Origin: Burkholderiales bacterium GJ-E10
Lineage (GTDB): Bacteria; Pseudomonadota; Gammaproteobacteria; Burkholderiales; Burkholderiaceae_F
Assembly: GCA_000828975.1 (NCBI GenBank)
Contig: AP014683.1
Coordinates: 355,520 to 387,519 of the forward strand
DNA length: 32,000 nucleotides
Reading direction: 5' to 3'
The position numbers were made by a program, and so were the translations under genes. Of this stretch, positions 8,312 through 31,993 are shown piece after piece; positions within the stretch are counted from its first letter, which is position 1, and the number at the start of each line of letters is the position of its first letter. The notes beneath the pieces were generated by a model. That model did not search any database, was not told the origin of the DNA, and saw nothing but the letters and a program-made list of their open reading frames with translations.

Positions 8312-8409
8312 GGCAACAATATTACGGAACTATTGAAAAATACTGGATTTTTTTGCCCAGGACATGGCAGAATCCTTCTCCGGTCCGAGCCGGAACGCGG
8401 TTCCCAGGC

Positions 8410-11420: not shown

Positions 11421-12954
<1,534 letters not shown>

Positions 12955-12970
12955 GAGATCGCGCCTCGAT

Positions 12971-12996
12971 TCAAGCGTCCACACTTATCGGTTGTT
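12971..12996 (+). other. 16S precursor processing stem, 3' arm
   Basis: Complement of 11251-11276 (see that feature). Confidence 0.7.
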
Positions 12997-13080
12997 CATG
13001 TCCAAGGCAGGGTCGGAGAATGGCGCGACATTCGGCGCGCATAGCGCAAGCGCTGTTGGCCTGAGGAATCGATGATTCTA

Positions 13081-13157
13081 GGGTCTGTAGCTCAGCCGGT
13101 TAGAGCACCGTCTTGATAAGGCGGGGGTCGTTGGTTCGAATCCAACCAGACCCACCA
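13081..13157 (+). tRNA. tRNA-Ile (anticodon GAU)
   Basis: GGGTCTGTAGCTCAGCCGGTTAGAGCACCGTCTTGATAAGGCGGGGGTCGTTGGTTCGAATCCAACCAGACCCACCA. The acceptor stem GGGTCTG/CAGACCC pairs, the anticodon loop is CTTGATAAG, and CCA is encoded. Confidence 0.97.
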
Positions 13158-13178
13158 GCGTCTCGCGTCTCGCTTGAC

Positions 13179-13254
13179 GGGGGTGTAGCTCAGTTGGGAG
13201 AGCGCCTGCTTTGCAAGCAGGAGGTCATCGGTTCGATCCCGTTCACCTCCACCA
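13179..13254 (+). tRNA. tRNA-Ala (anticodon UGC)
   Basis: GGGGGTGTAGCTCAGTTGGGAGAGCGCCTGCTTTGCAAGCAGGAGGTCATCGGTTCGATCCCGTTCACCTCCACCA. It has the G3:U70 identity pair, the anticodon loop CTTTGCAAG, and an encoded CCA. Confidence 0.97.
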
Positions 13255-13329
13255 CTGCAGCCTTGTCGGAGTTCATGCGCGATGGCATTCGGTGCCATGG
13301 CGCCTGACCTCCGGGTCTGGACAGAATCT

Positions 13330-13342
13330 CGTTCTTTAACAA
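13330..13342 (+). promoter_or_regulatory. boxA antitermination element (16S-23S spacer)
   Basis: CGTTCTTTAACAA, the second boxA-like copy, lies between tRNA-Ala and 23S. Confidence 0.6.
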
Positions 13343-13477
13343 TTCGAAGAAGCAAAGCGCATCGGCTCTTGATATGAGAGGAGCCGATGCCGGGTTGAAT
13401 TATTGCATTCAAACTCTCAGCAACTTGAGAAACAGCAAATCGTCGCGACATGACGGACCGGAGACGGCACCGTTATA

Positions 13478-16357
<2,880 letters not shown>

Positions 16358-16502
16358 ATAACCGTGCTGCCTCCCTCGAGGTGTTGGGGTGAGAGTGCAA
16401 TCAACCAGGTCTGTTCCGAATCGGAACAGACGCTTGCTTCCTTCGAATTGGATCGTTCGTACGCGCCGGTTTCCGGCGCGCGACGAAAGGTCGTCCGTCT
16501 TC

Positions 16503-16620
16503 AGCCTGATGACCATAGCGAGGTGGAACCACTCCTTCCCATCCCGAACAGGACAGTGAAACGCCTCAGCGCCGATGATAGTGGGATGTATTTCCTGTGA
16601 AAGTAGGACATCGTCAGGCT
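16503..16620 (+). rRNA. rrf: 5S ribosomal RNA
   Basis: AGCCTGATGACCATAGCGAGGTGG...CCGAACAGGACAGTGAAACGCC...GTAGGACATCGTCAGGCT. Helix I (AGCCTGATGAC/GTCGTCAGGCT) pairs fully. The sequence aligns to E. coli 5S by eye. Ends are good to +/- 2 nt. Confidence 0.9.
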
Positions 16621-16665: not shown

Positions 16666-16755
16666 CGCTTTTCTCGTGTCAATCATGACACCGATTCCCG
16701 GAAGAACCGCACCGCGACTACGCGATCCGTGCCCTTCCGCACTCGAAAGCAAATC

Positions 16756-18117
16756 ATGTCGTTTGAATCCCTTGGGCTAGGCGAGGCGCTCGTGCGCGCG
16801 GTCGCGGATGCGGGCTATACGGAGCCCACCCCGATCCAGCGGGAGGCGATCCCTGCCGTGTTGAGCGGTGGCGACCTGTTGGCCGGAGCACAGACCGGTA
16901 CCGGCAAGACTGCATCGTTCGTTCTTCCGATTCTCGAGCGCCTCCATCGCGCGGGCGACGCGCCGCAGGAAGGGCGCCGCAATGGACGCCGGATCCGGGC
17001 GCTGATCCTGGCACCGACGCGCGAGCTGGCGGCCCAGGTGGAGCAGAGCGTCCGCGAATACGGAAAGTACTCCCCGCTGCAGTCCCTGGCGGTGTTCGGG
17101 GGCGTGTCGATCAATCCGCAGATCGAACGACTGCGCCGCGGTGTGGACATCCTGGTGGCGACCCCCGGGCGGCTGCTGGACCACCACAGCCAGCGGACGA
17201 TCGATCTTTCCGGCATCGAGATCCTCGTTCTGGACGAAGCCGACCGCATGCTGGACATGGGGTTCATTCATGACATCCGCCGGGTGCTGGCGATCCTGCC
17301 GAAGAAGCGGCAGAGCCTGCTGTTCTCGGCGACGTTTGCCGAGCCGGTCCGGGTCCTGGCGGAATCCTTGCTGCACACGCCCAAGCGAATCCAGGTGACG
17401 CCGAAGAACACGACGGTGGATGCGGTCAACCAGGTCGTGGTGCCGGTCGACGCTGCGCGGAAGGCGGACCTGCTGGAGCACCTGATCCGCGAAGGAAACT
17501 GGTTCCAGGTGCTGGTGTTCACGCGAACCAAGCACGGTGCGAACAAGCTCGCGACCCGCCTGGAAAAGTGCGGGATCAGTGCGCTCGCCATTCACGGCAA
17601 CAAGAGTCAGAACGCGCGGACGCGCGCGCTGCAGGAATTCAAGAGCGGATCGCTGCAGGTCTTGGTGGCCACCGATATTGCGGCGCGAGGGCTGGATATC
17701 GAGCAGCTCCCGCACGTGGTGAACTTTGAACTGCCCATGGTCGCAGAGGACTACGTCCACCGGATCGGCCGCACCGGTCGGGCGGGCGCAACCGGGGAGG
17801 CGATATCGCTCGTGGCAGTGGATGAGGCGCCACGCCTGCACGATATCGAACGCCTGACGAAACGCGATCTCCCGCGGCGCACCGTTGCCGGATTCGAGCC
17901 CGAACGGCCGCTGCCCCAGGCCGGCTCCGGCGGCGCGCGGAAGCGGAGCGATTCCCGCCCCGCGGCCAATCGCGGTCCGAATCATCCCCCTGCGCGCGCG
18001 GGAGGCCGCGTTCCCGCGGCCGGAGGAGCGCGACACGACGGAGGCGGGCGCTCCGGCGCGGGCCGCCGCCACGGCGAAAAGAGCGGGGAAAGACGCGCAA
18101 ACCGGACCACCGGCTGA
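16756..18117 (+). CDS. rhlE: ATP-dependent DEAD-box RNA helicase
   Basis: Starts MSFESLGL. Motifs present: Q-motif region (TEPTPIQ), [10 protein letters not shown], Ia [34 protein letters not shown] and [12 protein letters not shown]. It has an Arg/Gly-rich basic C-terminal tail typical of RhlE. The ORF is open from 16729, but the ATG at 16756 matches the canonical N-terminus. Confidence 0.9.
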
Positions 18118-18186
18118 CCGCCCGTTTCCGTACGCTGAGGCAATTCCAAGGTCCAGCAGGGCGCGGAGCGCGCCCGCGGAGTTGCC

Positions 18187-18834
18187 ATGGCGGAGTTCGA
18201 CGAGTCTGCGAACCGACTCACTCTGAAGCTCGTCTACTACGGGCCGGCGCTGAGCGGAAAGACGACGAACCTCCTGCAGTTGCATGACCGGCTTGCCCCG
18301 CCGGTGAAAGGGGAGGTGATGAGCCTCGATACGCGAGGCGATCGCACGCTCTTTTTCGATCTCCTCCCGATCGGGGCACGCTTGCCGGACGGCCTGCTGC
18401 TGAGGGTGAAGGTATATACCGTGCCGGGCCAGGTCGCCCACGACGGGACGCGCAAGGCGGTCCTGTCGCGGGCCGACGGCGTGGCGTTCGTCGCCGACTC
18501 GCAGCGCGGCCAAAGCATCAACAACGGCGAATCGTTCGAGAATCTCGCAGCGAACTGCGCGCGGGTCGGAATCGACTTCGACACGTTGCCGCTGGTCGTG
18601 CAGTACAACAAGCGGGATTTGCCGGGCGTCCTCACCGAAGCCGAAATCGAGGCGCGCTGGCATGGCGCTGCGTGGCCCCTGATGTTCGCATCGGCGGTTG
18701 CCGGGCAAGGCGTGTCCGAGACCTTCGCGGCATTGCTGCAGGCGGTTCTTGGACGCCACCATGCCGAAGGCGGACGGCTCCACCGGTGCGTTCCCGACGG
18801 CCGGGAAGTGCTGGAGGCGTTGGGGCTGGCATGA
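18187..18834 (+). CDS. mglA: MglA-family Ras-like small GTPase
   Basis: 215 aa. Diagnostic blocks align with Myxococcus xanthus MglA, recalled from memory: KLVYYGPALSGKTTNL (P-loop), DRTLFFDLLP (intrinsic Arg53), YTVPGQV (Gln82), VADSQ and QYNKRDL (NKxD). A GGAG Shine-Dalgarno lies 5 nt upstream of the ATG. Confidence 0.85.
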   Translation: MAEFDESANRLTLKLVYYGPALSGKTTNLLQLHDRLAPPVKGEVMSLDTRGDRTLFFDLLPIGARLPDGLLLRVKVYTVPGQVAHDGTRKAVLSRADGVAFVADSQRGQSINNGESFENLAANCARVGIDFDTLPLVVQYNKRDLPGVLTEAEIEARWHGAAWPLMFASAVAGQGVSETFAALLQAVLGRHHAEGGRLHRCVPDGREVLEALGLA

Positions 18835-20108
18835 AGGAAATCCGCTCATCCAGCGAGGTTTCGCCGCCGGCCGTCGCCGCGCCCGGACCTCGGTTCGATC
18901 GCGATCGGAGCCTGCACGAACTCCTGGACGACCTGCCGATGCCGCAGATCGGTGCGGCGATCGAACAGCTGTGCGGCCCCTATGTCCTGGTCGACGGCGC
19001 GGGTTCCGTTCATACCCGCCGGGGAGTGATCGCGATCGAGTACGCCGAGATCCCGATCCGGTGGCAGGCCGAGCCGATCGGGTTCCTGCGCGCCTCGGTT
19101 TCCGTCGAACCCGCCGCCCTGCGCAGCGCCGCCGACCTGCTGGAGGCGATCATCGCGTCGGCGGCGCGCTATGCCATGGCACGGGATCTCCACAGCGAGG
19201 CCGTCGCCGCCGATTTCGATGCCCTTCAGCGCAAACACGCGCAGCTCGCCGCGTCCGAGGCACGATATCGCGACCTGGCCGCAAGCCTGGAACGGCGGGT
19301 TGCAGACCAGGTGAAGGCCCTCGACAACGGCTACCGCCAGGTCTACCGTTCCGAGAAACTGGCATCGGTCGGCCGACTCGCCGCCGGTGTCGCCCATGAG
19401 ATCAACAACCCGATCGGCTTCGTGCGCAGCAACCTTGCCACCGCGCGCGGATATGTCGAGAAGTTCGGATCGGTGGGGGCGGCGTTGCGGGAAGGACGGG
19501 CAGGCGAAGCGGAGGGTCGATGGCGCGAATCCGACCTCGACTACATCCTGGAAGACTTTTCCGCGTTGATCGAGGAAAGCATCGCCGGCGCCGACCGGAT
19601 TGCGGCCATCGTCGGCGACCTGCGGCGCGCGGCCAATATCGACCGCGCCGAGGAAGCGCTCGCTGACGTCAACGAGCTCGTGCGCGCTGCCGTGGCACTT
19701 GCGTCGAACGGCGCCGCGGCGCATCCCCGCCTCGCGCTTCAGCTCCGGAACGTCCCGCCGATCCGCTGCCGGCCGGCGCAGATCAGCGAACTGATTCGGA
19801 ATCTTCTATCCAATTCGATCGCCGCGATCCAGTCGGGCGGGGAGGTCACGGTGCGTACCGAAATGGCCGATTCCTGCCTCGTTCTGGAAGTGATCGATAC
19901 CGGCGAGGGGATCGCACCGGAGACGCTCCCCCGGGTATTCGACCCCTTCTTCACCACCCGTGCCATCGGCCAAGGCACCGGCCTTGGGCTGACCGTATGC
20001 CGGGACATCGTTGAGGCGCACGAGGGAACGATCGATCTAGCCAGCGCGCCGGGGCGCGGAACCACCGTGACCGTGCGCATCCCTGCAGGATGGACAGGCG
20101 GAAGCTAG
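18831..20108 (+). CDS. Soluble sensor histidine kinase (uncharacterised N-terminal domain, coiled coil, HisKA, HATPase_c)
   Basis: The ATG at 18831 overlaps the mglA stop (ATGA). No TM segments are seen. H-box: EKLASVGRLAAGVAHEINNPIGFV. N-box: LIRNLLSNSIAAI. G-boxes: VIDTGEGI and GQGTGLGL. The upstream part of the 478-aa track ORF overlaps mglA and was discarded. Confidence 0.85.
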   Translation: MKEIRSSSEVSPPAVAAPGPRFDRDRSLHELLDDLPMPQIGAAIEQLCGPYVLVDGAGSVHTRRGVIAIEYAEIPIRWQAEPIGFLRASVSVEPAALRSAADLLEAIIASAARYAMARDLHSEAVAADFDALQRKHAQLAASEARYRDLAASLERRVADQVKALDNGYRQVYRSEKLASVGRLAAGVAHEINNPIGFVRSNLATARGYVEKFGSVGAALREGRAGEAEGRWRESDLDYILEDFSALIEESIAGADRIAAIVGDLRRAANIDRAEEALADVNELVRAAVALASNGAAAHPRLALQLRNVPPIRCRPAQISELIRNLLSNSIAAIQSGGEVTVRTEMADSCLVLEVIDTGEGIAPETLPRVFDPFFTTRAIGQGTGLGLTVCRDIVEAHEGTIDLASAPGRGTTVTVRIPAGWTGGS

Positions 20109-20124
20109 GCGGAACCCCCCCATC

Positions 20125-22362
20125 ATGTCGAACCTCGCCGCGTTTTTTACCGGGGCCGGCGGCGCCGGACTCACCACCGAGGCGGCAACACCGCCCTCGC
20201 GCTACCGGCTCCTGATCGTCGATGACGAACCCAACGTGTTGCGGGCGCTGGAGCGTGCCTTCCGCCAGGAAAATTACGACATCGTCACGGCGCCGAACGG
20301 CGTCGACGGCTTGCGCATTCTCGGGCAGCACGAAGTCCAGGTGGTGATCTCCGATTACATGATGCCCCGGATGAACGGCGCCGACTTTCTGCGGGAAGTG
20401 AAGGCGGCGTATCCCGACACGATCCGGATCATGCTCACCGGTCACGCCGACAGTGGTGCGGTGATGGGGGCGGTAAAGGATGGCGCGGTCTACAAGTTCA
20501 TTCTCAAGCCCTGGAACGACGACGATCTGCGCCTGAGCGTCGCCCTGGCGATCGAACAATACGAATTGTCGCGGAAGAACCGCGCGCTGCAGCAGGAAAA
20601 TCGCGACAGGGAGCGGGAAATCTCCGCCCTGGCCCGGATGGCCGTCAACAACCGCAGCCAACTCGCGCTCCTGTTGAACAAGAGGGCCTTGCTGACTTCC
20701 CAGCAGGTGCAGGAACTGCACCGCCTCCAGCAGCAGCGCAAGGAGCCCATGATCAAGCTCATCGTCGAGCGGGAATGGGTCGACCAAAACCGGATCTTCG
20801 ACATTCTCCGCAAGGACATGTTGGCGGAGGAGGTCGCATTACCGGAGTTCTCGATCGATCCGGCGGTTGCGGCCCTCGTTCCCCACGCGTTTTGCACCCG
20901 CGAATGGGTCCTGCCGGTTCGGTTGACCGGGCGCAAGCTGCTGCTCGCCATGGCCGATCCTCTCGACGCGGGGCTGCTCTCCGACGTGCGGTTCGTCACC
21001 GGTCTCGAGATCGTGCCGGCGCTCGCGGCGGTGGCGGCGATCCAAGCGAAGATTGCCGAAGTGTATGGCGGCAATGACACCACGGACCTGCGGGAGCTCA
21101 CCTCGGTCGTCGACGTCGCCGACCCGTACGAGGGAATCGAGATCGTCATCGAAGACGACGACGATGTGGCGCTCGAGGAGCTGCTGCGCCAGACCGAGGA
21201 GCCGCCATCGATCCGTCTTGCGAACTCGATCGTGCTCGAGGCGATCCGCCTGAAGGCAAGCGACATCCACATCCAGCCGCGGACCAAGAACGTGGCCGTG
21301 CGCTACCGGATCGACGGCGTGCTGATCGACAAGTTCCAGATTCCGGGCGGCATTCACCAATCGCTGGTGTCGCGCATCAAGGTCATGGCGGAACTCGACA
21401 TCAGCGAACGGCGGCGCCCCCAGGACGGCCGCATCACCGTCAAGACGCCTACGCGCATCGTCGATCTGCGAATCTCGACCTTGCCGACGATCAATGGCGA
21501 AAAGGTGGTCATGCGCATTCTCGACCGCAACTCGGCGGCACTGTCGCTGGAACAACTGGGTTTCCTCGATCGCGATCTGCTGCGGATCCAGCGGATCGCC
21601 GACAAGCCCCAGGGCATCATCCTGGCGACCGGCCCGACGGGAAGCGGCAAGACGACCACGCTCTACAGCCTGCTGCAGCACAGTGCAACACCGGGAAAGA
21701 ACTACATCACGCTGGAAGATCCGGTCGAGTACTACATGGATCAGGCCGGGCAGGTGCTGATCCGGGAACGGATCGGCCTCACGTTTCCGGTCGCGTTGCG
21801 CGCGATCCTGCGCCAGGATCCGGACGTGATCCTCCTCGGGGAGATCCGCGATGCGGAAACCGCGGAGGTCGCATTTCATGCCGCATCGACGGGCCATGTC
21901 GTGTTCTCCACGTTGCATACCAACTCGGCGGCGGCAACCGTTTCGCGCCTTCTCGACTTGGGTTTGAAGCGCGAGATCATCGCCACCACGCTCGAGGGCA
22001 TCATCGCGCAGCGCCTGGCGCGCAAGGTTTGCGCCCACTGTGGAGAGGAGCATGCGCCGGACCGCGCATTGCTTGCGCAATTGGGCCCGCGTTTTGTCCA
22101 GGAGGTGTCGTCGATCCGCCGCGGACGGGGCTGCGGAAAGTGCCACGGCACCGGCTATCTCGGCCGTGTCGGTCTTTACGAGGTGCTGTCCCCCGACGAC
22201 ACGCTGCGCCAGCAGATCGCCGCCGGCGTGAGCGTTCTCGAGATGGCGCACAGCGCCCGCGAGCGGGGGTTTGCATCCCTGATCGACGACGCACTCGAGA
22301 AGATCAAGGCCGGAATGACCAATCCCGAGGAAATCTTCCGGGTGCTCGGTCCGCAGAACTGA
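20125..22362 (+). CDS. Response-regulator receiver fused to T2SSE_N domain and PilB/GspE-family secretion ATPase
   Basis: 745 aa. REC domain: LLIVDDEPNVL...VVISDYMMPRMNG...FILKPWNDDDL. A coiled-coil linker follows, then a GSPII_E_N-like domain (...LLLAMADPLDAGLLSDVRFVTGLEIVPALAA). The ATPase core has Walker A GPTGSGKTTT, Asp box/Walker B DPDVILLGEIRD, His box TGHVVFSTLHTN and a tetracysteine motif CAHCGEE...CGKCHGTGYLGR. Confidence 0.9.
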   Translation: MSNLAAFFTGAGGAGLTTEAATPPSRYRLLIVDDEPNVLRALERAFRQENYDIVTAPNGVDGLRILGQHEVQVVISDYMMPRMNGADFLREVKAAYPDTIRIMLTGHADSGAVMGAVKDGAVYKFILKPWNDDDLRLSVALAIEQYELSRKNRALQQENRDREREISALARMAVNNRSQLALLLNKRALLTSQQVQELHRLQQQRKEPMIKLIVEREWVDQNRIFDILRKDMLAEEVALPEFSIDPAVAALVPHAFCTREWVLPVRLTGRKLLLAMADPLDAGLLSDVRFVTGLEIVPALAAVAAIQAKIAEVYGGNDTTDLRELTSVVDVADPYEGIEIVIEDDDDVALEELLRQTEEPPSIRLANSIVLEAIRLKASDIHIQPRTKNVAVRYRIDGVLIDKFQIPGGIHQSLVSRIKVMAELDISERRRPQDGRITVKTPTRIVDLRISTLPTINGEKVVMRILDRNSAALSLEQLGFLDRDLLRIQRIADKPQGIILATGPTGSGKTTTLYSLLQHSATPGKNYITLEDPVEYYMDQAGQVLIRERIGLTFPVALRAILRQDPDVILLGEIRDAETAEVAFHAASTGHVVFSTLHTNSAAATVSRLLDLGLKREIIATTLEGIIAQRLARKVCAHCGEEHAPDRALLAQLGPRFVQEVSSIRRGRGCGKCHGTGYLGRVGLYEVLSPDDTLRQQIAAGVSVLEMAHSARERGFASLIDDALEKIKAGMTNPEEIFRVLGPQN

Positions 22363-22446
22363 CGACGAACGTCCAAGCGCGCCGAGACCGGATCCCGCAC
22401 GCGGCCCCGCCTTGGCGCACCGCTCGCGTTCGTGGCGGGGAAGCCC

Positions 22447-23796
22447 TCAGGAATGGAGCGGATCGATCCGGATCTGCAGTCGGATCGGTTGCCCGGTCCG
22501 GATCTCGAATTGCCGGATCCGCCGGATGAGCGGCTCCGTCAATGCATGTCCGGCAACGAGCAGCAGCACGCCTTGGGGCGACAGGAAGTCTGCCGCCAGG
22601 ACCATTCCAGGTGCCAGCTCGCCGGTCGCCATCGGTACGGCCGTTCCCGAAACCGGTGCCTGGCGATGTTCCGACAGCCGGATCTGCAGGAACACGTCCA
22701 CAACCTCGGGGTCGAACTGGGTGCCGCGCCCCTGCCGCAGCAGGATCTGCGCCTCGTCCTCGTTCGGCATCGCGCCGCCCAGATGTCCTTCCTGCAGTTC
22801 GTCGAAGGCATCGGCGACGGCGAGAATGCGCGCGCTCCGACTGATCTCGATCCCGACCTTCCGATCCGGGTAGCCCAGGCCGTCGAAGCGCTCATGGTGT
22901 TCGTGGATGATCGCCGCGACCCCATGGAGATCTTCCAGCGGCATGAGCAAGTGCTCTCCCAGTACGGGATGCTGCTGGTATTGGGCGAGTTCCTCGGGTT
23001 CCATCCGCGCGACCGGCTTCGCCAGCATTGCGTCGGGCAGGCCGATGTGCCCGATGTCATGCAGCAATGCGGCGACGAAGAGATCCTGCTTCTCCGATTC
23101 GTCCAGGCCCATCGCCTGCGCGATCGACCGGGCCGCGGCGGCAACCCGGCGGCCGTGGCCTCCCAGCCGTCCGCCGCGCAACTCCAGGACGTTGGAAAAC
23201 ACCTTGATCGAGGTGAGAAAGGTGGATTTCAGCTTCCGGTTGGCCTGTGCCAGTTCCTGCGTCCGCTCCTGCACCCGTTCTTCGAGATGTTCGTTGAGCG
23301 CCCGCAACGCGAGATTCTGCTGCTGCGTGAGGGCCTCCAGCCGATCCTTGTCGCGTTGCAGCTCGACGCGTTCCAGGCCCTGATGGACCGCCGCGCGCAG
23401 TTCCGATTCGTCCCAGGGCTTGTTGAAGTAGCGGTGGATCCGGCCCCGGTTGACGGCGGCGATCGCCGCGCTCATGTCCGCATGCCCGGTGAGCAGGATG
23501 CGGATCGTATCGGGCCAGGAAGCCTGGACCTGTTCGAGAAACTGCGCCCCGTCCATCCCGGGCATCCGCATGTCGGAAATCACCACGTCGATCGGCGTTT
23601 CCCGCAGCATGGCGAGCCCCTCGGGTCCGCTTCCCGCGGTGAGGATGCACAGATCCGGCGCCCGGAGGGCGCGCCGCAGGGACGCGAGAATGTTGGGCTC
23701 GTCATCGACGCAGAGCACGGTCGGCGGGGGCGCCTTCTGCACGGCGATCGCAAGGCCTTGCGGCGCGTCGGTGGAATCCGGGATCGGTACGGTCAT
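22447..23796 (-). CDS. RpfG-family response regulator (REC + HD-GYP c-di-GMP phosphodiesterase) with C-terminal extension
   Basis: 449 aa. REC: VLCVDDEPNIL...VVISDMRMPGMDG...YFNKPWDESEL. A coiled coil follows. HD-GYP: LLHDIGHIGL and HHERFDGLGYP. There are about 75 extra C-terminal residues. An AAGGAA Shine-Dalgarno lies upstream of the ATG. Confidence 0.9.
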   Translation of the reverse strand: MTVPIPDSTDAPQGLAIAVQKAPPPTVLCVDDEPNILASLRRALRAPDLCILTAGSGPEGLAMLRETPIDVVISDMRMPGMDGAQFLEQVQASWPDTIRILLTGHADMSAAIAAVNRGRIHRYFNKPWDESELRAAVHQGLERVELQRDKDRLEALTQQQNLALRALNEHLEERVQERTQELAQANRKLKSTFLTSIKVFSNVLELRGGRLGGHGRRVAAAARSIAQAMGLDESEKQDLFVAALLHDIGHIGLPDAMLAKPVARMEPEELAQYQQHPVLGEHLLMPLEDLHGVAAIIHEHHERFDGLGYPDRKVGIEISRSARILAVADAFDELQEGHLGGAMPNEDEAQILLRQGRGTQFDPEVVDVFLQIRLSEHRQAPVSGTAVPMATGELAPGMVLAADFLSPQGVLLLVAGHALTEPLIRRIRQFEIRTGQPIRLQIRIDPLHS

Positions 23797-23811
23797 GGGC
23801 GGTTCCTTGCT

Positions 23812-24756
23812 CTATGCGGCTGGCGGCTCGGGCTGCCGTACCGGCAGGCGGACGACGAAGCGCGTCCCCCTTCCGGGTTGGCTATGCACCGCGATGTCGC
23901 CGTGGTGTTTCCGCACGATGCCGTAGGAAAGCGACAGCCCTAGTCCGGTTCCTTGTCCGATCGGCTTGGTCGTGAAGAACGGGTCGAAAATGCGCGCGGC
24001 GTTTTCGGGCGGAATGCCGCAACCATCGTCGGCGACCTCGATCCGGACCTGGCCATCGGATTCGTCGTATGCGGTACGGATGGTGATGGTACCGCGGCGA
24101 TTTCCATCCATCGCCTGGGCGGCATTGACGAGCAGGTTCATGATGATCTGGTTGATTTCGGATGGCAGGCATTCCACGTCCGGAAGATCGCCGTATTCCC
24201 GGACGACGTCGGCCTTGTACTTGATCTCGTTGTTGACGATGTTGAGCGTCGATTCGATGCCGCGATGAAGGTCCGCATGCTCCCACTCCTGGCGGGCGTC
24301 GACGCGCGAAAAGTCCTTGAGATCCTGCACGATCTTGCGCACGCGTTCGATCCCTTCCCGCGACTCCGCCATCAGGGTGGGAATGTCTTCCTTGAGAAAA
24401 TCGAGTTCGATCTCCTCGCGCAGTTGCCGCAGTTGCATTCGGGCCATGGGGTCGGCCACCAGCGATTCCGCCCGTTCGTAGGCATCCAGCATGCGGAAGA
24501 GCTGCATGACGTATTTTTCGAGACTGCCGAAGTTGCAGAACACATATCCGACCGGATTGTTGATCTCGTGCGCAACGCCCGCGGCAAGCTGGCCGATCGA
24601 GGCCAGCTTCTCCGACTGCATCAGCATGTTGCGGGTCTGCGAGAGTTTCCGGTTCGCCTCCTTCAGTTCCTCGTTGGCGCGGATGAGATTGCGGATCTGA
24701 TCGGCGTCGCGCGTGGCCTCGGCGGGAACGGGAGTGCGCGAATCATCGGAGTCCAT
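23812..24756 (-). CDS. Histidine kinase lacking a recognisable sensor domain (coiled coil, HisKA, HATPase_c)
   Basis: The start MDSDDSRT at 24756 gives 314 aa. H-box: EKLASIGQLAAGVAHEINNPVGYV. N-box: IIMNLLVNAAQAM. G-boxes: VADDGCGI and GQGTGLGL. The longer 450-aa track ORF runs through the HDOD gene in another frame and was trimmed. Confidence 0.85.
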   Translation of the reverse strand: MDSDDSRTPVPAEATRDADQIRNLIRANEELKEANRKLSQTRNMLMQSEKLASIGQLAAGVAHEINNPVGYVFCNFGSLEKYVMQLFRMLDAYERAESLVADPMARMQLRQLREEIELDFLKEDIPTLMAESREGIERVRKIVQDLKDFSRVDARQEWEHADLHRGIESTLNIVNNEIKYKADVVREYGDLPDVECLPSEINQIIMNLLVNAAQAMDGNRRGTITIRTAYDESDGQVRIEVADDGCGIPPENAARIFDPFFTTKPIGQGTGLGLSLSYGIVRKHHGDIAVHSQPGRGTRFVVRLPVRQPEPPAA

Positions 24757-25639
24757 GCCGTATCTCCCGGAACGCGGTTTCGACGCGATGGAAAAGGCGC
24801 AGAGGCGCTTCGGTCGACCATTGCAGCCGATCCCACGATGCACGCTGCATGGGCGGTACCAGGTCGTCGCCGGCGGCATGGAGGTCGAGTGCATGGGCGA
24901 TGCCGTCGGCGTTGTGAACCAGGTCGGCAAGCGAGGCACGGCCGGGCCGCCTGGACGAGGTCCCGGCGACCGCATCGGAATCCTCGTCCTCCCCGGACAG
25001 ATGACCGGGGTTGTGGTGCCATGCGATCGCATCGATGACCGCTTCGGTGAAGTGCCAGTGGGCGGCGATCCAGGCGCCGACCTGGCAGTGATCGATCCCC
25101 AATGCCGCACGTTCGGCTTCGAGCCGGGGAAGGTCGCGATCCCGCGCGTCGCGCACCACGGCACCGTATTCCTGCGGAAAGTGGGAGGCGAGGGCGAGCG
25201 AACCCAGATCGTGGATCAAGCCCGCGGTGAAGGCTTCGTGCATCGCATGGCCCGACTCCCGCGCGAGTTCCTGCGCGGCGATCGCAGTCGCCAGGGAGTG
25301 CTCCCAATATTTCGGAAAGTCGAAGGTCGGGCAGCCGGGGCCGTGTAATCGCTGTGCCAAGGACTCCTGCATCACGATGGTTTCGACGGTGCGCAGTCCG
25401 ATGAGGCGGATCGCGTCTCCCACCGTGGAGATCGATCCCGACATGCCGTAAAACGACGAGTTCGCAACCCGCAGGATCCGCGCCGTGATGGCCGGATCGA
25501 TGTCGATTTTGCGCGCGAGATCGTCGAACCCGATGTCGTCATCACGGAATGCGGCCATCAACTCGTGCGCTGCCGCGGGAAGCATCGGCAGCGCCTGGAC
25601 GCGGTCGCGGACCTGCTCGGCATCGATGCGCGCCATCAT
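24743..25639 (-). CDS. HDOD domain protein
   Basis: The start MMARIDAEQV at 25639 gives 298 aa. HDOD-typical blocks: LPMLPAAAHELMAAF, DPAITARILRVANSSFYG, VGDAIRLIGLRTV and GLIHDLGSLAL. Its stop overlaps the downstream kinase start by 14 nt. The start is uncertain. Confidence 0.8.
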   Translation of the reverse strand: MMARIDAEQVRDRVQALPMLPAAAHELMAAFRDDDIGFDDLARKIDIDPAITARILRVANSSFYGMSGSISTVGDAIRLIGLRTVETIVMQESLAQRLHGPGCPTFDFPKYWEHSLATAIAAQELARESGHAMHEAFTAGLIHDLGSLALASHFPQEYGAVVRDARDRDLPRLEAERAALGIDHCQVGAWIAAHWHFTEAVIDAIAWHHNPGHLSGEDEDSDAVAGTSSRRPGRASLADLVHNADGIAHALDLHAAGDDLVPPMQRASWDRLQWSTEAPLRLFHRVETAFREIRHGLR

Positions 25640-25808
25640 GACGGGGGCTCCGTGCGGTAGCGCCGCATCAGATGCATGAGCGGATGCACCCGGCCTTCGC
25701 GCAGCCAGACGCGGAACAGGATGTCGAGCCGGCGGAGTTCCACCGATGACGAGGCGGGCGCCGTCGGGTCCGGCGGCACCGCTTCGTTCCGGGGGGATCG
25801 AGGATCGG

Positions 25809-28451
25809 TCATGAGTCGGCTCCTGCCGCAAGGGGCGCCGCAAACGGTTCGGAAGGGAACAAGATGAGCAGATTCTCCAGGGCGTTGTCCGCCGCCGCCA
25901 GCGTACGCCGGAATGCAAGGTACCGGCGACTCCCGATTTCGAGCCGGGTCGCCGTCGAATCCGGTTTGCGGAGGACTTCCGTGAGCGGGCCCGGCAACAT
26001 CGCCGCCGAACCGCCGATGACCGCCGGGATGGCCGGATCGAACCGCGCCGGATCCCCTTGCACGAATACGATCAAGCCCTCGGCATCCACTCCGATGATC
26101 ACCGCGGGAAGGCTGTCGAGGATCCGGCGCACGCCGTTGGCCGCGCGTGCCAGGACGCGTGCATGGTCGCTGTGGCGGGACACCGCCTCCTGCAGGCGTG
26201 CGTTCATCTGCTCGAGATCGGCCTTTGCCGCTTCGACTTCCCGCGCCAGGCGGCGGTTTTCGTCGGCCAATTCCTTTTTGCGGAACGCATCCGCGATCCG
26301 GTTGCGCAGTTTCTCGTCATCCCAGGGCTTGGTGAGGAACTGGTAGATCGCGCCTTCGTTGACGGCATCGATGATCGACTGCAGATCGGTGAATCCCGAC
26401 AGCACCATGCGAACGGTGTCGGGTACCAGCTCTTTGGCGCGGCGCAGGAATTCGACACCGGTCATGCCGGGCATGCGCTGGTCGGAGAGGATCACGTCGA
26501 CATGGGTTTCGGCGAGGAGCTTGAGCCCTTCGGCAGCGCTGTGGGCGAGGAGGATCCGATACCCTTCCCGGCGCAGGAGGCGGCGCAGCGAGGAAAGGAT
26601 GTTTTCCTCGTCGTCGACCAGCAGCAGAGTCCGCTGTGTTCCGGCGCCGCGCAGGAACTGCGCCGGCAGCCGTCGGTCCTCGCGCAGCATGGCCGTGATC
26701 TCGTCCGCCTCCACCGCTTTGCTGAAGTAGTGCCCCTGGACGAGATCGCACCCGTTGGTCGACAAGGTCTGGAGTTGATCCTCCGTCTCCACGCCTTCGG
26801 CGAGCACCCGAAGCTGGAGGCTGTGCGACATGGCGATGATGGCGCGGGTGACCGAGGCGGTTTCCGGCGATAGCAGCACGTCGGGGATGAGCGAGCGGTC
26901 GACCTTCACGACGTCGACGGGCAGTCGATGGAGCCGGCTGAGGCTTGCGTGGCCGGTGCCGAAATCGTCGAGCGCGATTTCGAACCCGATCGCCTTCAGG
27001 TCGCGCAGGACCGCGGCCGCCTGCTGCGCGTCGTCGAGGAGCGCCGTTTCGGGCACTTCCAGTCCCAGCCAGGACGGATCGCAGTGGCAGTCGAGCACGA
27101 TCCGCTGCACCCAGGCGGAAAAGTTCGGCTGCTGGAGATGGCCCCGGGACAGGTTGACCGTGATCCGCGGCGCGTGCAGGCCGGCGGCGCGCCACGCGAG
27201 CGCCTGCCGGCAGGCTTCCCGGAGCACCCAGCCGCTTACGGCGAGGATCATGTCGCTGCGTTCCGACAGGGGAATGAACTCGGCGGGCGGCACCTCGCCC
27301 AGCGCCGGGGAGCGCCAGCGCAGCAGGGCCTCGACGGACGCGATTTCCCCGTTCGTCAGGTTCATGACCGGCTGGTACGCAAGCGAGAGTTCACCGGCGG
27401 TGATCGCTCCGGGCAGCGCGGACTCGATTCGCAGGGAGCGGATGACGTCCGGGTCGGCCTCGCCCGCGAAGGCAATGGTTCCGGGGGCTGCGCCCGACGC
27501 GGTCGACTCGGCGCGATCGATGAGGTTGGCCGGGTCGTCGGCGTCGCCGGGGAATCCCGCAATGCCGATCGCGCATTGCGGGAATCGTTCCGACGCACCG
27601 ATCCGCGCCGGGCGGTTGACGGCGGCCCGCAACTGGCGCGCCCGGGCCACCAGCGTTTCCGGCGTCTGGCGTTGGCCCGGGTCGGGGAGCACGGCGAATC
27701 CGGCTTCGCCGATGCGTGCGAGGAGATCTCCGGGGCCGCACTGTTCCCCCAGCCGGGATGCGATCGTCATGGCGAGGCTGTTCGACGCGCCCGATCCGGC
27801 GGCGATTCCCAGGTCCGCCGCGATCGTCGGCACCTGGATGGCGATCAGCGCGAGCGGAATCGTGCCCGATGCGGGGGCTGCGCCCCGGCTTCGGAGCGCA
27901 GCGGTTTCCAGATCGACCTCCTCGCGCAGCGATGCGCGATTGGGCAGCCCGGTGACTTCATCGCGATCGGTGAGCTCCTTGATGCGCCGCTCCGCCTCGA
28001 CGTGCAGGGTGATGTCCTGGAGCAGGCCGACGCCATGGAGATCACCGCTGTCGAAGCGTTCGAGAATGCCGCGATGGCGGACGATCAGGGTCCTGCCGTC
28101 GCCGTGGACGGCGCGGTGGCGGAATTCGAAGGGTTGCCCGGGGGTCGCCATCCGCCAGAACGCCGTCACGTACGCCTGGTCGGAGGCGGGGATCCAGGGG
28201 CAGGTGTCGAGCGGGAAGCAGCAAGGGTCGGGCGACCCGCCGAGCATCGCGCTGAGCGCCGGCGATGCCGTGAGCGTACCGGCCGGAAACGCAACCTCGA
28301 ACAGGCCTACGCCGCCCAGGGACTCCAGCCAGGTGAGCTTGCGGGTGTTGTCCGCCTTTTGACGCGCGAACCGCTCGGGGTCGGGATGATCGCGCACCGT
28401 GGTCGGCTCCGTCGCCGCATCGGCGGAAGGACGGTTCGAGCAAGGCTGCAT
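25809..28451 (-). CDS. Multidomain c-di-GMP signalling protein: PAS, degenerate GGDEF, EAL, REC, coiled coil, C-terminal PAS-like
   Basis: 880 aa. The GGDEF-domain entry is TGLPNRASL, but the active-site motif reads GEAGF (27696-27710) instead of GG(D/E)EF. EAL motifs are EALLRW, DDFGTGHAS and AEGVET. An internal REC follows (LLLVDDEENIL...VILSDQRMPGMTG...FLTKPWDDEKL). The C-terminal segment is PAS-like (LDSLPAVIIGVDAEGLIVFVQG). Confidence 0.85.
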   Translation of the reverse strand: MQPCSNRPSADAATEPTTVRDHPDPERFARQKADNTRKLTWLESLGGVGLFEVAFPAGTLTASPALSAMLGGSPDPCCFPLDTCPWIPASDQAYVTAFWRMATPGQPFEFRHRAVHGDGRTLIVRHRGILERFDSGDLHGVGLLQDITLHVEAERRIKELTDRDEVTGLPNRASLREEVDLETAALRSRGAAPASGTIPLALIAIQVPTIAADLGIAAGSGASNSLAMTIASRLGEQCGPGDLLARIGEAGFAVLPDPGQRQTPETLVARARQLRAAVNRPARIGASERFPQCAIGIAGFPGDADDPANLIDRAESTASGAAPGTIAFAGEADPDVIRSLRIESALPGAITAGELSLAYQPVMNLTNGEIASVEALLRWRSPALGEVPPAEFIPLSERSDMILAVSGWVLREACRQALAWRAAGLHAPRITVNLSRGHLQQPNFSAWVQRIVLDCHCDPSWLGLEVPETALLDDAQQAAAVLRDLKAIGFEIALDDFGTGHASLSRLHRLPVDVVKVDRSLIPDVLLSPETASVTRAIIAMSHSLQLRVLAEGVETEDQLQTLSTNGCDLVQGHYFSKAVEADEITAMLREDRRLPAQFLRGAGTQRTLLLVDDEENILSSLRRLLRREGYRILLAHSAAEGLKLLAETHVDVILSDQRMPGMTGVEFLRRAKELVPDTVRMVLSGFTDLQSIIDAVNEGAIYQFLTKPWDDEKLRNRIADAFRKKELADENRRLAREVEAAKADLEQMNARLQEAVSRHSDHARVLARAANGVRRILDSLPAVIIGVDAEGLIVFVQGDPARFDPAIPAVIGGSAAMLPGPLTEVLRKPDSTATRLEIGSRRYLAFRRTLAAADNALENLLILFPSEPFAAPLAAGADS

Positions 28452-28660
28452 GGCGGATCTGCCGGTTCGATGCGCTCACGACCCCAACGGGTCCATGGTC
28501 CGGAACGGAACGTGTGGACCGCATCGCGTCTGGGCGGCCCGCACGGCTCACCCAGACTATGGGACGGGATCGCCGCTGCCGATCGGCAAATAAGATGCGG
28601 CGAACGCCGGATACTCGCCGGATCCAGACGATCCTCCGGGAAGCGGTTTCGCGATCCGGT

Positions 28661-31600
28661 TCAGGAGGACACCGGGTCTCCCCGCCCGGTGCGGAAACTC
28701 CGGGCGAGCGCCGCTCCCGTCGGACTGGACTGCGCGGCGATCGAACGCGGCGGCCCGCACGCCACGACGCGGCCTCCGGCGTCGCCGCCCTCCGGCCCCA
28801 GGTCGATGATCCAGTCGGCATGGGCGATCAGGTCCAGATTGTGTTCGACGACGATCACGCTGTTGCCGGCATCGACCAGCCGGTGCAGCGCCTGCAGCAG
28901 CAGGCGCACGTCGGCCATCGCTAGGCCGACGGTGGGTTCGTCGAGCACGTACAGCGTGTGGGACTGCGGGGCGGATCGCGCCTTGCGGTTCGATGCGCCG
29001 ATCTCGCCGCGGGCCTTGGCGAGTTCGGTGACGAGTTTGATCCGCTGCGCCTCGCCTCCGGACAGGGTGGGCGAGGGCTGGCCGAGCGTCAGGTATCCCA
29101 ACCCGACCTGCTGCAACAGGCGCAGGGGATGGGCGATCCGCGGCGTTGCGGCAAAGAACTCCACCGCCTCGTCGACTTCCATCGCCAGGACGTCGCCCAC
29201 GCTCCTGCCGCGCCACAGCACCTCCAGCGTAGCCGGTTCGAAGCGCTTGCCGCCGCAGCGTTCACAGAGAATCTTGACGTCCGGCAGGAAGCTCATCTCG
29301 ATCGTGCGTACGCCCTGGCCTTCGCATTCGGGGCAGCGGCCGCCCGTCGTGTTGAAGGAAAACCGACTCGCGGTGAAACCGCGCATGCGCGCTTCGGTGG
29401 TGTCGGCGAAGCGCTTGCGGATCTCGTCCCAGATGCCGACGTAGGTCGCCGCACAGGAGCGGGGCGTCTTGCCGATCGGGGTCTGGTCGACTTCGAGGAC
29501 GCGGGCGATGTGCTCGCGCCCGTCGATCGCCGTGCACCCGTGCATGGGAGGTCCTTCCCGCCGCAGGTTCGACAGCAGCACGTCCCGCGCCAGCGTCGAC
29601 TTGCCGCTTCCCGACACGCCCGTCACGACCACCAGACGCCCCAGGGGGATGTCGACATCCAGGCCCTGCAGGTTGTGCAGATGGGCGCCGCGCACGCGCA
29701 GCCGCATGGTGTCGGCGTCGACCGTGCGCACCTGATCCGGCGGCTGCATCGCACCGGGCCGCAGATGCGCGCCGGTGACCGACTCGGGACAGGCGATCAG
29801 ATCCTCGACGCGTCCTTGCGCGACGATCCGTCCGCCGCGCGAACCGGCGCCCGGCCCGACGTCGATGCAATGCTCGGCGGCGCGGATCGTTTCCTCGTCG
29901 TGCTCGACCACCACCAGCGTATTGCCGCGCGACTCGAGCTTGCGCAGTGCGCGCAGCAGGATATCGTTGTCGCGGGCGTGGAGGCCGATCGTGGGTTCGT
30001 CGAGCACGTAGCAGACGCCCTGCAGATTGGAGCCCAGTTGCGCGGCGAGGCGGATGCGTTGCGACTCGCCGCCCGAAAGCGTGGGCGCCGCCCGGTCCAG
30101 TGCCAGATACCCCAGACCGACCTCGAGCAGGAAGTCGAGCCGCGATCGGACCTCGGCGGTCGCGTCCCGGGCGATCTCCGCGGCGCGGCCATCGAGCACG
30201 AGCCCGCCGATCCATGTCCGCGCCTGCTCCACGGTCATGGCGCCGACATCGGCGATCGAGCGTCCGTCGAAGCGCACCGCGAGCGACGTGGGATTGAGCC
30301 GCTTGCCATGGCAGGCCGAACAGGGCGTCTCCTCGCCTTCGTACCACTCGTTCCACCAGACCTCTTCGCCGCTGTGCTCGGCGTCGAAGCCGGAGAGTTG
30401 CAGGCCGGTGCCGAAACAGCGTTCGCACCAGCCGTGCTTGGAGTTGTAGGAGAACATCCGCGGATCGGGTTCGGAAAACGACTTGCCGCAACCGGAACAC
30501 GCGCGCTTGGTCGAGAACGTGCGGTGCTCCAGAACGGCGTCCTGCGCGGTGCCGCCGGCGATGGCCTCGCGCAGTGCCGACATCGGCCAGCAGATTTCCA
30601 GCGCGCCGTTGCCGTGCTCCAGGGCCGTGTGCAGCAGGGCGCGCAGATCCGCTTCGCGCTCCGGCTGGACCAGGATGGTACCGACCGGCAGGTCGATCGA
30701 ATGCTCGCGAAACCGGTCCGGCCGCTCCCAGGGACGCGTCGGAACGAAGCGCCCGTCGAGGCGCAGATGGCTATGGCCCTTGCGCGCGGCCCATTGCGCA
30801 AGTTCGGTGTAGACCCCTTTGCGGTGGACGATCAGGGGGGCGAGCACGCCGATCTCGCGGCCGTGCCATTCCCGGGCGATCGTTGCCGTGATCGCATCGA
30901 AGGTCTGCGGCTCCACCGGCAGATTGCAGTCGGGGCAATACTGGGTGCCGAGCTTGACGTAGAGCAGGCGCAGGAAATGGTGCAGTTCGGTCTGCGTCGC
31001 GACCGTGCTCTTGCGCCCCCCGCGGCTGACGCGCTGCTCGATCGAGACCGTCGGGGCGATGCCGTGGATCGCGTCGACGTCCGGGCGCGCCGCCGGCTGG
31101 ACCATCGAGCGCGCGTACGCGTTGAGCGATTCGAGGTAGCGCCGCTGCCCTTCCTGGAACAGGATGTCGAAGGCGAGCGTGGACTTGCCGCTGCCGGAGA
31201 CGCCGGTGATGACGGTGAACGTGTCGCGGGGGATGGCGACGGTGGCGTTGCGGAGATTGTGCTCGCGGGCGCCGACGATCTCGATGGCCTCCCCTCCCGC
31301 GTACGAAATCCTCGCATCGGTACGCTGCACCCCCTCGCCCGCGTACGAAATCCCGGTGTCGGTACGCTGCACCCCCTCGCCCGCGTACGAAATCCCGGTG
31401 TCGGTACGCTGCACCCCCTCGCCCGCGTACGAAATCCCGGCGTCGGTATGCTGCACCCCCTCTCCCGCGTACGAAATCCCGGCGTCGGTATGCTGCACCC
31501 CCTCTCCCGCCTGCGGGAGAGGGCGGGGGTGAGGGTCGGCCCATTGCCGCATCGCCGCTTCATGCTCCCGCAGCGCGCGCCCGGTATGCGACGTCGGGTG

Positions 31601-31993
31601 CGCCGCAATCTCCGCCGGTGTTCCGGCGGCAACGATCTGCCCGCCCGCATCCCCGCCTTCCGGGCCGAGATCGATGACCCAGTCCGATGCGCGGATGACG
31701 TCGAGATTGTGCTCGATCACGATCAGCGAGTGCCCGGCCACCAGCAGCTTGCGCAGGGCGCGCATCAGTCGCGCGATGTCTTCGAAGTGCAGGCCGGTGG
31801 TGGGTTCGTCGAAAAGCAGGAGCGCGCCTTTGGCGGTGCCGCGCTGGCGTTCCGGACTGCTCTTGGCGGTCTCGGCGAGGAAGCCGGCGATCTTCAGGCG
31901 TTGCGCCTCGCCGCCCGAGAGCGTCGGTACGGGCTGGCCGAGGCGCAGATAGTCCAGGCCGACCTCGGCGAGGGGGGCGAGCGCCCGCAGCAC
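28661..31993 (-). CDS. Tandem-fused UvrA-like ABC ATPase (5'-partial; continues beyond the window end)
   Basis: The ORF is open to the window edge. The N-terminal in-window part is the end of one UvrA-like module ([44 protein letters not shown]). A repeat linker follows. Then comes a complete second module: [11 protein letters not shown], 2x [34 protein letters not shown], Zn-finger CxxC pairs and [11 protein letters not shown]. Confidence 0.85.
31296..31505. repeat. Five tandem copies of a 42-bp repeat, in frame inside the UvrA-like gene
   Basis: Units start at 31296, 31338, 31380, 31422 and 31464 (CCCGCGTACGAAATCCCGG(T/C)GTCGGTA(C/T)GCTGCACCCCCTC(G/T)). Copies 2 and 3 are identical to each other, as are copies 4 and 5; copy 1 is diverged. 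On the coding strand they translate to AGEGVQ(H/R)TD(A/T)GISY x5. Confidence 0.95.
31500..31523. repeat. REP-like perfect palindrome abutting the tandem array
   Basis: CCCTCTCCCGC-CT-GCGGGAGAGGG (11-bp arms) is followed by CGGGGGTGAGGG. The right arm motif is reiterated at the junction of every 42-bp unit. Confidence 0.8.

Follow-up and report, generated by a model that had tools for sequence, protein, structure and literature searches.

In Xanthomonas and Pseudomonas, type IV pili are controlled by RpfC/RpfG and by FimX-PilZ-PilB, in which FimX carries an N-terminal receiver and a non-catalytic EAL domain that binds cyclic diguanylate (c-di-GMP). An initial annotation of a 32,000-nt stretch of the Burkholderiales bacterium GJ-E10 genome (hereafter the window; G000:C1:355520-387519 in the complete, high-GC, 3.28-Mb genome G000) drew on these systems to interpret a block of four minus-strand signalling genes. 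The block faces a convergent plus-strand unit (hereafter the MglA unit) that encodes an MglA-like GTPase, a histidine kinase (HK1) and an ATPase with a receiver (REC) domain. We find that the NosK/NosR system of Burkholderia and the Hno network fit the block better, and that it probably constitutes a NosK/NosR-type phosphorelay functionally tied to the MglA unit.

In the nosRPK loci of B. pseudomallei and B. thailandensis, the haem protein NosP controls the kinase NosK, and NosK phosphorylates NosR in vitro; the B. pseudomallei NosR is degenerate, carrying HG-GTP (PMC12570481). The window resembles nosRPK in that a soluble kinase without a sensor, bearing a HEINN phosphatase/kinase motif, lies beside a REC-HD-GYP regulator. 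It differs in that no NosP (FIST) gene adjoins the kinase gene, whose start is instead overlapped by an HDOD gene, in that the HD-GYP motifs are intact, and in its additional components, namely an EAL-REC-PAS protein together with the MglA-kinase-ATPase unit. In the Hno/NosP network of Shewanella oneidensis and Vibrio cholerae (Plate and Marletta 2012 via PMC12570481; bioRxiv 10.1101/2021.11.05.467447), one kinase family likewise serves several receivers, including a REC-EAL phosphodiesterase and a REC-HD-GYP protein. Compared with that network, the window has a non-degenerate HD-GYP domain, places the receiver after the EAL domain and is linked to a GTPase and a pilus-type ATPase, and the G000 genome contains no H-NOX gene. 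The likeness to RpfG and FimX lies in a REC-HD-GYP protein and a degenerate GGDEF-EAL protein beside a PilB-class ATPase, whereas the window EAL domain is catalytically complete, its receiver is C-terminal and no PilZ adaptor is encoded nearby.

The four-gene block and its NosK/NosR-type core

Domain content, motifs, family membership, gene order and conservation of linkage were read directly, using Pfam for domains, the sequence itself for open reading frames and junctions, PDB alignments for active-site motifs and AlphaFold (AF2) models. The four genes (22447-28451) lie in the order originally proposed, which we confirmed from the reading frames and Pfam domains:

25809-28451, minus strand: 880-aa protein (Pfam: weak PAS_3-like N-terminus, GGDEF with expectation value (E) 4e-11, EAL E 1e-71, REC E 2e-23); domain order PAS-like, degenerate GGDEF, complete EAL, NosR-type receiver (Asp657), ~70-residue helix, C-terminal PAS-like
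24743-25639, minus strand: stand-alone HDOD protein, 298 aa (Pfam HDOD, PF08668, E 1.5e-58, 198 bits)
23812-24756, minus strand: sensor-less, predicted NosK-type histidine kinase (HK2), 314 aa, with His63 in HEINNP; overlaps the HDOD gene by 14 nt
22447-23796, minus strand: REC-HD-GYP protein of the NosR family, 449 aa, with acceptor Asp75 and a conserved C-terminal domain of ~60 aa

Against NCBIfam NF053512 (NosR family response regulator c-di-GMP phosphodiesterase; curated cut-off 400 bits), the REC-HD-GYP protein scores 518.4 bits, with residues 27-441 aligned to positions 1-421 of the 422 in the model; its gene is the sole NosR-family gene in G000. HK2 is 59-61% identical to kinases encoded directly after FIST (NosP) genes (genomes G242, G304, G141, G234, G100, G192 and G276). 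Because the regulator exceeds the NosR cut-off and the kinase so closely matches those beside NosP genes, the four-gene core is, judged by its sequence, a two-component c-di-GMP phosphodiesterase system of the NosK/NosR type with an HDOD protein in NosP's place. Just 62 residues, including a short coiled coil, precede the phospho-accepting histidine of HK2, and there is therefore no room for a sensor domain. NCBIfam NF038348 covers the HK2 core only (about 353-354.7 bits), and Pfam returned no matches on the kinase N-termini or the HD-GYP C-terminus. Among related kinases, the N-terminal region, elsewhere 190-817 residues long, shortens to 82-87 in a Noviherbaspirillum group, and in the window's genus 35 residues precede the core.

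We then examined the NosR family in an order sample of 301 genomes from the same order, evenly drawn (18 MglA-positive and 283 MglA-negative). A NosR-family gene, one per genome above the cut-off, occurs in 52 of the 301 and, at the loci inspected, stands beside an HK2-type kinase gene. Most MglA-negative loci (n=20) show, in this order, GGDEF-EAL-REC, HDOD, kinase and REC-HD-GYP genes, usually followed by a lone REC gene; the row in G242 reads REC-GGDEF-EAL, REC-PAS, HDOD, PAS-kinase, NosR, FIST and sensor-less kinase. By gene content and order, the four window genes are thus a compact, rearranged copy of a widespread conserved module, of which only the NosK/NosR core has previously been studied. 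FIST is absent from the window, and G000 has a single FIST gene, at a distance of 2.8 Mb; of all the loci fetched, only L105 has FIST next to the module, with a weak match at L036. The distant FIST gene and the 792-aa GGDEF-EAL gene immediately downstream of it (G000:C1:3182098-3185479, minus strand), between which there is no kinase gene, look like a separate candidate pair linking nitric oxide (NO) to c-di-GMP. The genome also encodes a third kinase of this paralogous set (42% identity to HK2), ~4 kb from another NosR-type receiver (G000:C1:2125643-2130878).

The proposal that the block encodes two phosphodiesterase chemistries, EAL and HD-GYP, each under receiver control, holds at the level of motifs. 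The 880-aa protein has GEAGF where an active diguanylate cyclase has GG(D/E)EF, and GPGD at the I-site, where the arginine of RxxD is lost. Its EAL site is complete when aligned with active 5M3C and MorA (4RNH), retaining EALLR, N, ExxE, DDFGTG, K..D, EGVET and QG, and the protein thus carries the predicted catalytic residues of an EAL phosphodiesterase. Across a family alignment of 50 sequences, DDFGTG is present in all 50 and the GGDEF site is mostly degenerate. The suggestion that this protein is of the FimX type fails, since its EAL catalytic residues are complete and its receiver follows the EAL domain; we rejected that identity on these grounds. Its PDB matches are also stronger to 5M3C (1.7e-68) and MorA (5.5e-66) than to FimX (3.5e-31).

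The PAS-GGDEF-EAL-REC-PAS architecture originally given, with its GGDEF domain degenerate, stands for the three central domains, while the N-terminal PAS is weak and the C-terminal PAS is supported by homologues and the AF2 model rather than by Pfam. Pfam returned no match for the C-terminal domain in the protein itself; the corresponding domain matches Pfam PAS in 23 of 45 homologues. The AlphaFold model has five strands and a helix after the ~70-residue helix, at a predicted local distance difference test (pLDDT) score of 91. A fold search with the REC-helix-PAS model was dominated by receiver domains and gave no independent PAS match. In many relatives the REC-helix-PAS piece is a separate protein.

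In the REC-HD-GYP protein, the metal ligands H, HD, HHE and D and the GYP motif are intact, and the protein aligns with active V-cGAP3 and PmGH. HDIGK is changed to HDIGH; the lysine is a histidine in this genus alone, HDIGK being present in 46 of 71 orthologues. According to the Galperin and Chou survey, this lysine contacts c-di-GMP in PmGH. We weighed the alternative that the protein has no enzymatic role and instead, depending on its phosphorylation, regulates the EAL protein allosterically, as HnoD does HnoB in Shewanella; a role of this kind has been proposed for the degenerate NosR of B. pseudomallei. The genus-specific substitution, the degeneracy (HG-GTP) of the characterised NosR (PMC12570481) and the constant presence of an EAL-REC partner in the module are all consistent with such a role. 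We nevertheless consider it unlikely, given that the ligands and GYP are retained in the window, that the motifs are likewise kept in most of the 71 orthologues, and that the alignment with the active enzymes spans the catalytic domain in full.

The C-terminal ~60 residues of the NosR-family protein (window 22450-22686, minus strand) form a conserved small alpha/beta domain in the model (pLDDT 85), with the consensus L.PGMVLxRDL...DG.LLL..G..L. A fold search with this domain gave no significant PDB match, the best being to RNA polymerase beta-prime subdomains (E 0.09), and ruled out a PilZ-like identity.

Linkage to the MglA unit

The convergent unit consists of three plus-strand genes:

18187-18834, plus strand: MglA-like small GTPase (Pfam), present in 18 of the 301 order-sample genomes
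18831-20108, plus strand: HK1, a kinase paralogous to HK2 with a family-specific N-terminal domain
20125-22362, plus strand: REC-MshEN-T2SSE ATPase with a degenerate MshEN domain (Pfam), the output of the unit

In their cores, HK1 and HK2 are ~38% identical (104 of 270 aligned positions). The genome holds ~37 GGDEF, ~32 EAL and 7 HD-GYP regions in 3.28 Mb, and in such a genome the adjacency of the two units alone is unremarkable; it is conservation across genomes that lifts it above chance. To compare gene neighbourhoods, we used a set of 80 loci around REC-ATPase orthologues (62-68% identity), with domains mapped by tblastn and reciprocal best hits, and for distances the full-flank loci (n=43), which have at least 9 kb on either side of the ATPase-unit locus. 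In 35 of the 43, a REC-HD-GYP gene lies within 10 kb of the MglA unit, and in 34 of those 35 it sits at a constant offset upstream and co-directional, in the order kinase, REC-HD-GYP, lone REC, MglA, HK1, REC-ATPase. Reciprocal best hits confirmed the orthology of the kinase and REC-HD-GYP genes at MglA-unit loci. The run is closely packed in Azonexus hydrophilus (L052), with several stop and start codons overlapping or abutting. Relative to this usual co-directional cluster the window is an inverted variant. In other layouts the module lies downstream in the same orientation (L092, L044, L069), or the two units diverge (L049); at L046 they converge, like those of the window.

Presence and absence across the order sample, whose genomes are related, follow the same pattern: NosR occurs in 16 of 18 MglA-positive and 38 of 283 MglA-negative genomes. 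In 13 of the MglA-positive genomes it lies within ~1.3 kb, directly upstream of mglA, and the window is a fourteenth adjacent case. The association is asymmetric, the MglA unit being nearly always accompanied by the module and the module often occurring without the MglA unit.

Within the genus we compared 14 genomes. The ATPase, kinase and HDOD genes are found only in G000, G001 and G010, in the same arrangement and at 88-96% identity, and these three genomes carry all seven genes. G004 has an intact REC-HD-GYP gene (79% aa identical; locus L093, G004:C29 2668-4316) flanked by genes for a DEAD-box helicase (91%) and a UvrA-like protein (94%). Beside it, the kinase gene is reduced to its final 64 nt and the EAL gene to its first 126 nt and an inverted fragment of 231 nt; the MglA unit is gone without trace. 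The more distant G006 has the DEAD and UvrA-like genes adjacent to each other. On the basis of the G004 relics and the G006 arrangement, the seven-gene block of 10.3 kb appears to have entered part of the genus in one insertion, between the genes for the DEAD-box helicase and the UvrA-like protein, and the remnants indicate that in the G004 lineage both halves were later lost and the HD-GYP gene kept. Thus, except for that retained gene, the seven genes were either present together or lost together.

The comparison proposed in the initial annotation, of co-occurrence and adjacency in related genomes, has therefore now been run, and the linkage at 35 of 43 full-flank loci and in 16 of 18 genomes, in several arrangements, together with the co-occurrence within the genus, supports its view of one integrated circuit over chance neighbours. 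The competing view is that the two units are independent and travel together since signalling genes pile up in transferable islands, with no signal passing between them. It gains from the resemblance of the whole 10.3-kb block to one insertion in part of the genus, from the frequency of the NosR module without MglA, and from the lack of a recognisable c-di-GMP receptor in the cluster, where MshEN is degenerate and no PilZ gene is nearby. However, the two units stay adjacent in no fewer than four different arrangements, spread over deep branches of the ATPase tree, and in most species the REC-HD-GYP gene is inside a co-directional overlapping run, directly before the lone REC gene and mglA. Moreover, two single-copy genes would fall less than 5 kb apart by chance in ~0.3% of 3.5-Mb genomes, compared with the 14 of 16 observed. 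Independence of the two units is, on this evidence, distinctly improbable.

Literature searches combining MglA, HD-GYP and PilB, or MshEN and receiver, found no paper describing the cluster. The MglA-kinase-REC-ATPase unit is widespread and unstudied, and if the tie holds, its regular NosK/NosR neighbour would supply a candidate input and a second-messenger link. What the window contributes is an inverted and pared-down form of the cluster, in which the kinase is sensor-less, as well as a genus-level pattern of gain and loss. The module may stand upstream or downstream, be inverted or be missing, and these variants, together with the G004 remnant, offer natural comparisons for genetics. Non-pathogenic, culturable species with both units include Aromatoleum evansii KB740 (L034), Azonexus hydrophilus (L052), Formivibrio citricus (L040) and Noviherbaspirillum suwonense (L092), whereas Zoogloea ramigera (L064) has no such module.

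A hemerythrin-PAS histidine kinase gene follows the REC-ATPase gene in 19 of the 43 full-flank loci (L052, 12238-14217, and 18 others); it is absent from the window.

Coupling route, kinase input and proposed mechanism

The ATPase has a Pfam MshEN match at residues 237-317. The domain is defined by two RLGxx(L/V/I)(L/V/I)xxG(L/V/I)(L/V/I)xxxxLxxxLxxQ motifs, from which the window ATPase departs, with QLA in place of RLG in motif 1 and a motif 2 that begins P-M-I and lacks R, G and Q. In each of the 83 family members motif 2 begins with proline and is without R, G and Q, and some orthologues keep RLG in motif 1. Against 5HTL, the MshE N-domain, the window ATPase gives an E value of 0.085 only. 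The genome has four PilZ genes, none of them near the cluster. With degenerate MshEN motifs and neither a PilZ nor an H-NOX gene in the vicinity, direct binding of c-di-GMP to the ATPase is an unlikely coupling route. That c-di-GMP lowered by both phosphodiesterases acts on the ATPase through MshEN, as in MshE and PilB2, is highly improbable despite the Pfam match and the RLG of some orthologues, given QLA, the proline-initial motif 2 and the poor 5HTL match, and we rejected direct gating on the motifs.

All three receivers of the locus, in the HD-GYP (Asp75), EAL (Asp657) and ATPase (Asp77) proteins, have the NosR model receiver as their best family match and are 44-47% identical to one another. 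Since the receivers are this similar and the kinases ~38% identical, cross-phosphorylation or protein contacts are the more likely routes. We infer the following mechanism, with every phosphotransfer step modelled on the NosK-to-NosR transfer of B. pseudomallei (PMC12570481). HK2, cytoplasmic and without its own sensor, would be regulated by an accessory protein, a role for which the HDOD protein, translationally coupled and with its metal ligands retained, is the candidate; HDOD control of HK2 would parallel NosP control of NosK. HK2 would then phosphorylate the HD-GYP receiver and probably that of the EAL enzyme too, and phosphorylation would set the c-di-GMP-degrading activity of both. The tie to the MglA unit would most likely run through the shared receiver family and paralogous kinases, or through protein contacts.

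We know of no established mechanism for HDOD, a common signalling domain. The window HDOD protein starts at the ATG at 25639, with no start codon farther upstream in frame. Its residues H114, H143-D144, H184 and H208-H209 align with the metal ligands of 3HC1, pointing to a predicted bimetal site, and are largely conserved across 31 module HDOD proteins. The G. sulfurreducens protein 3HC1 binds two iron ions through five histidines and one aspartate (PMC12075610). It belongs with MmoQ and SadB to the same fold family as the window protein (E 1e-22 to 1e-31). SadB, a YbaK-HDOD adaptor, lacks three of those histidines, which the window HDOD keeps (PMC12075610, PMC6543031); MmoQ and 3M1T are likewise without these. 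Of 30 cases, 25 have the gene of an HK2-type kinase following that of HDOD. If the proposed mechanism holds, this conserved, translationally coupled position before NosK-type kinases would provide a concrete candidate partner for HDOD function.

Several observations weigh against a functional tie or against parts of this mechanism. The compared loci and genomes are mutually related, and the counts thus overstate their independence. About 70% of module-bearing genomes have no MglA, which makes any coupling facultative, and MglA units without the module exist at Zoogloea-type loci (L064, L066, L067, L079 and L083) and in genomes G042 and G322. The HDIGK lysine that contacts c-di-GMP in PmGH is replaced in the window's genus, and a 169-nt gap leaves the EAL gene possibly transcribed separately. 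HDOD genes also precede kinases with their own PAS sensors, so that HDOD is not simply a replacement sensor, and literature searches on HDOD with histidine kinase or autophosphorylation found no paper tying HDOD to kinase control. Even so, we favour a NosK/NosR-type phosphorelay tied to the MglA unit. More tentatively, HDOD might be the input of the NosK-type kinase, as a sensor of redox state, NO or O2, and the phosphorelay and MglA might together switch a pilus-type motor through phosphorylation of a receiver that replaces the ancestral c-di-GMP site. If true, the HDOD domain would for the first time acquire a mechanistic role, and PilB-class motors a new mode of control.

Gene junctions and flanking features

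The junctions described in the initial annotation, namely the 14-nt HDOD/kinase overlap, the 15-nt spacer with a Shine-Dalgarno sequence and the 84-nt convergent gap, were all confirmed from the sequence. The HDOD stop codon (24743-24745) lies within the kinase gene, which begins with the ATG at 24756 and has GGGAGA upstream. Between the kinase stop and the ATG of the REC-HD-GYP gene is the 15-nt spacer agcaaggaaccgccc, which includes AAGGAA. The intergenic features are:

22363-22446, strand not assigned: convergent intergenic region, 84 nt between stops, with a GC-rich hairpin of -38 kcal/mol
25640-25808, minus strand: 169-nt spacer between the EAL and HDOD genes, a possible site of an internal promoter, absent from the initial annotation
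28598-28620, minus strand: terminator-like hairpin after the UvrA-like gene and upstream of the 880-aa gene

Neither the hairpin of the convergent region nor the 169-nt spacer folds better than shuffled sequence. A scan of 18000-28800, including the 169-nt spacer, found no sigma-70-like sites, and no terminators were found inside the four-gene block, spacer included. The predicted hairpin at 28598-28620 indicates that a separate transcription unit starts here. Because the 169-nt spacer follows the 880-aa gene, that gene may have its own promoter, with the other three genes tightly coupled.

The left border of the seven-gene block is the DEAD-box helicase gene (16729-18117), which follows a complete rRNA operon (16S, two tRNAs, 23S and 5S; 11421-16619, plus strand). 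On the other side, the UvrA-like gene (28661-31993, minus strand) runs off the end of the window; in relatives, the frame extends to ~2,000 aa and comprises two halves, each UvrA-like. Another long open reading frame with GGDEF and EAL domains (8353-11028, plus strand) lies a short way upstream of the rRNA operon.

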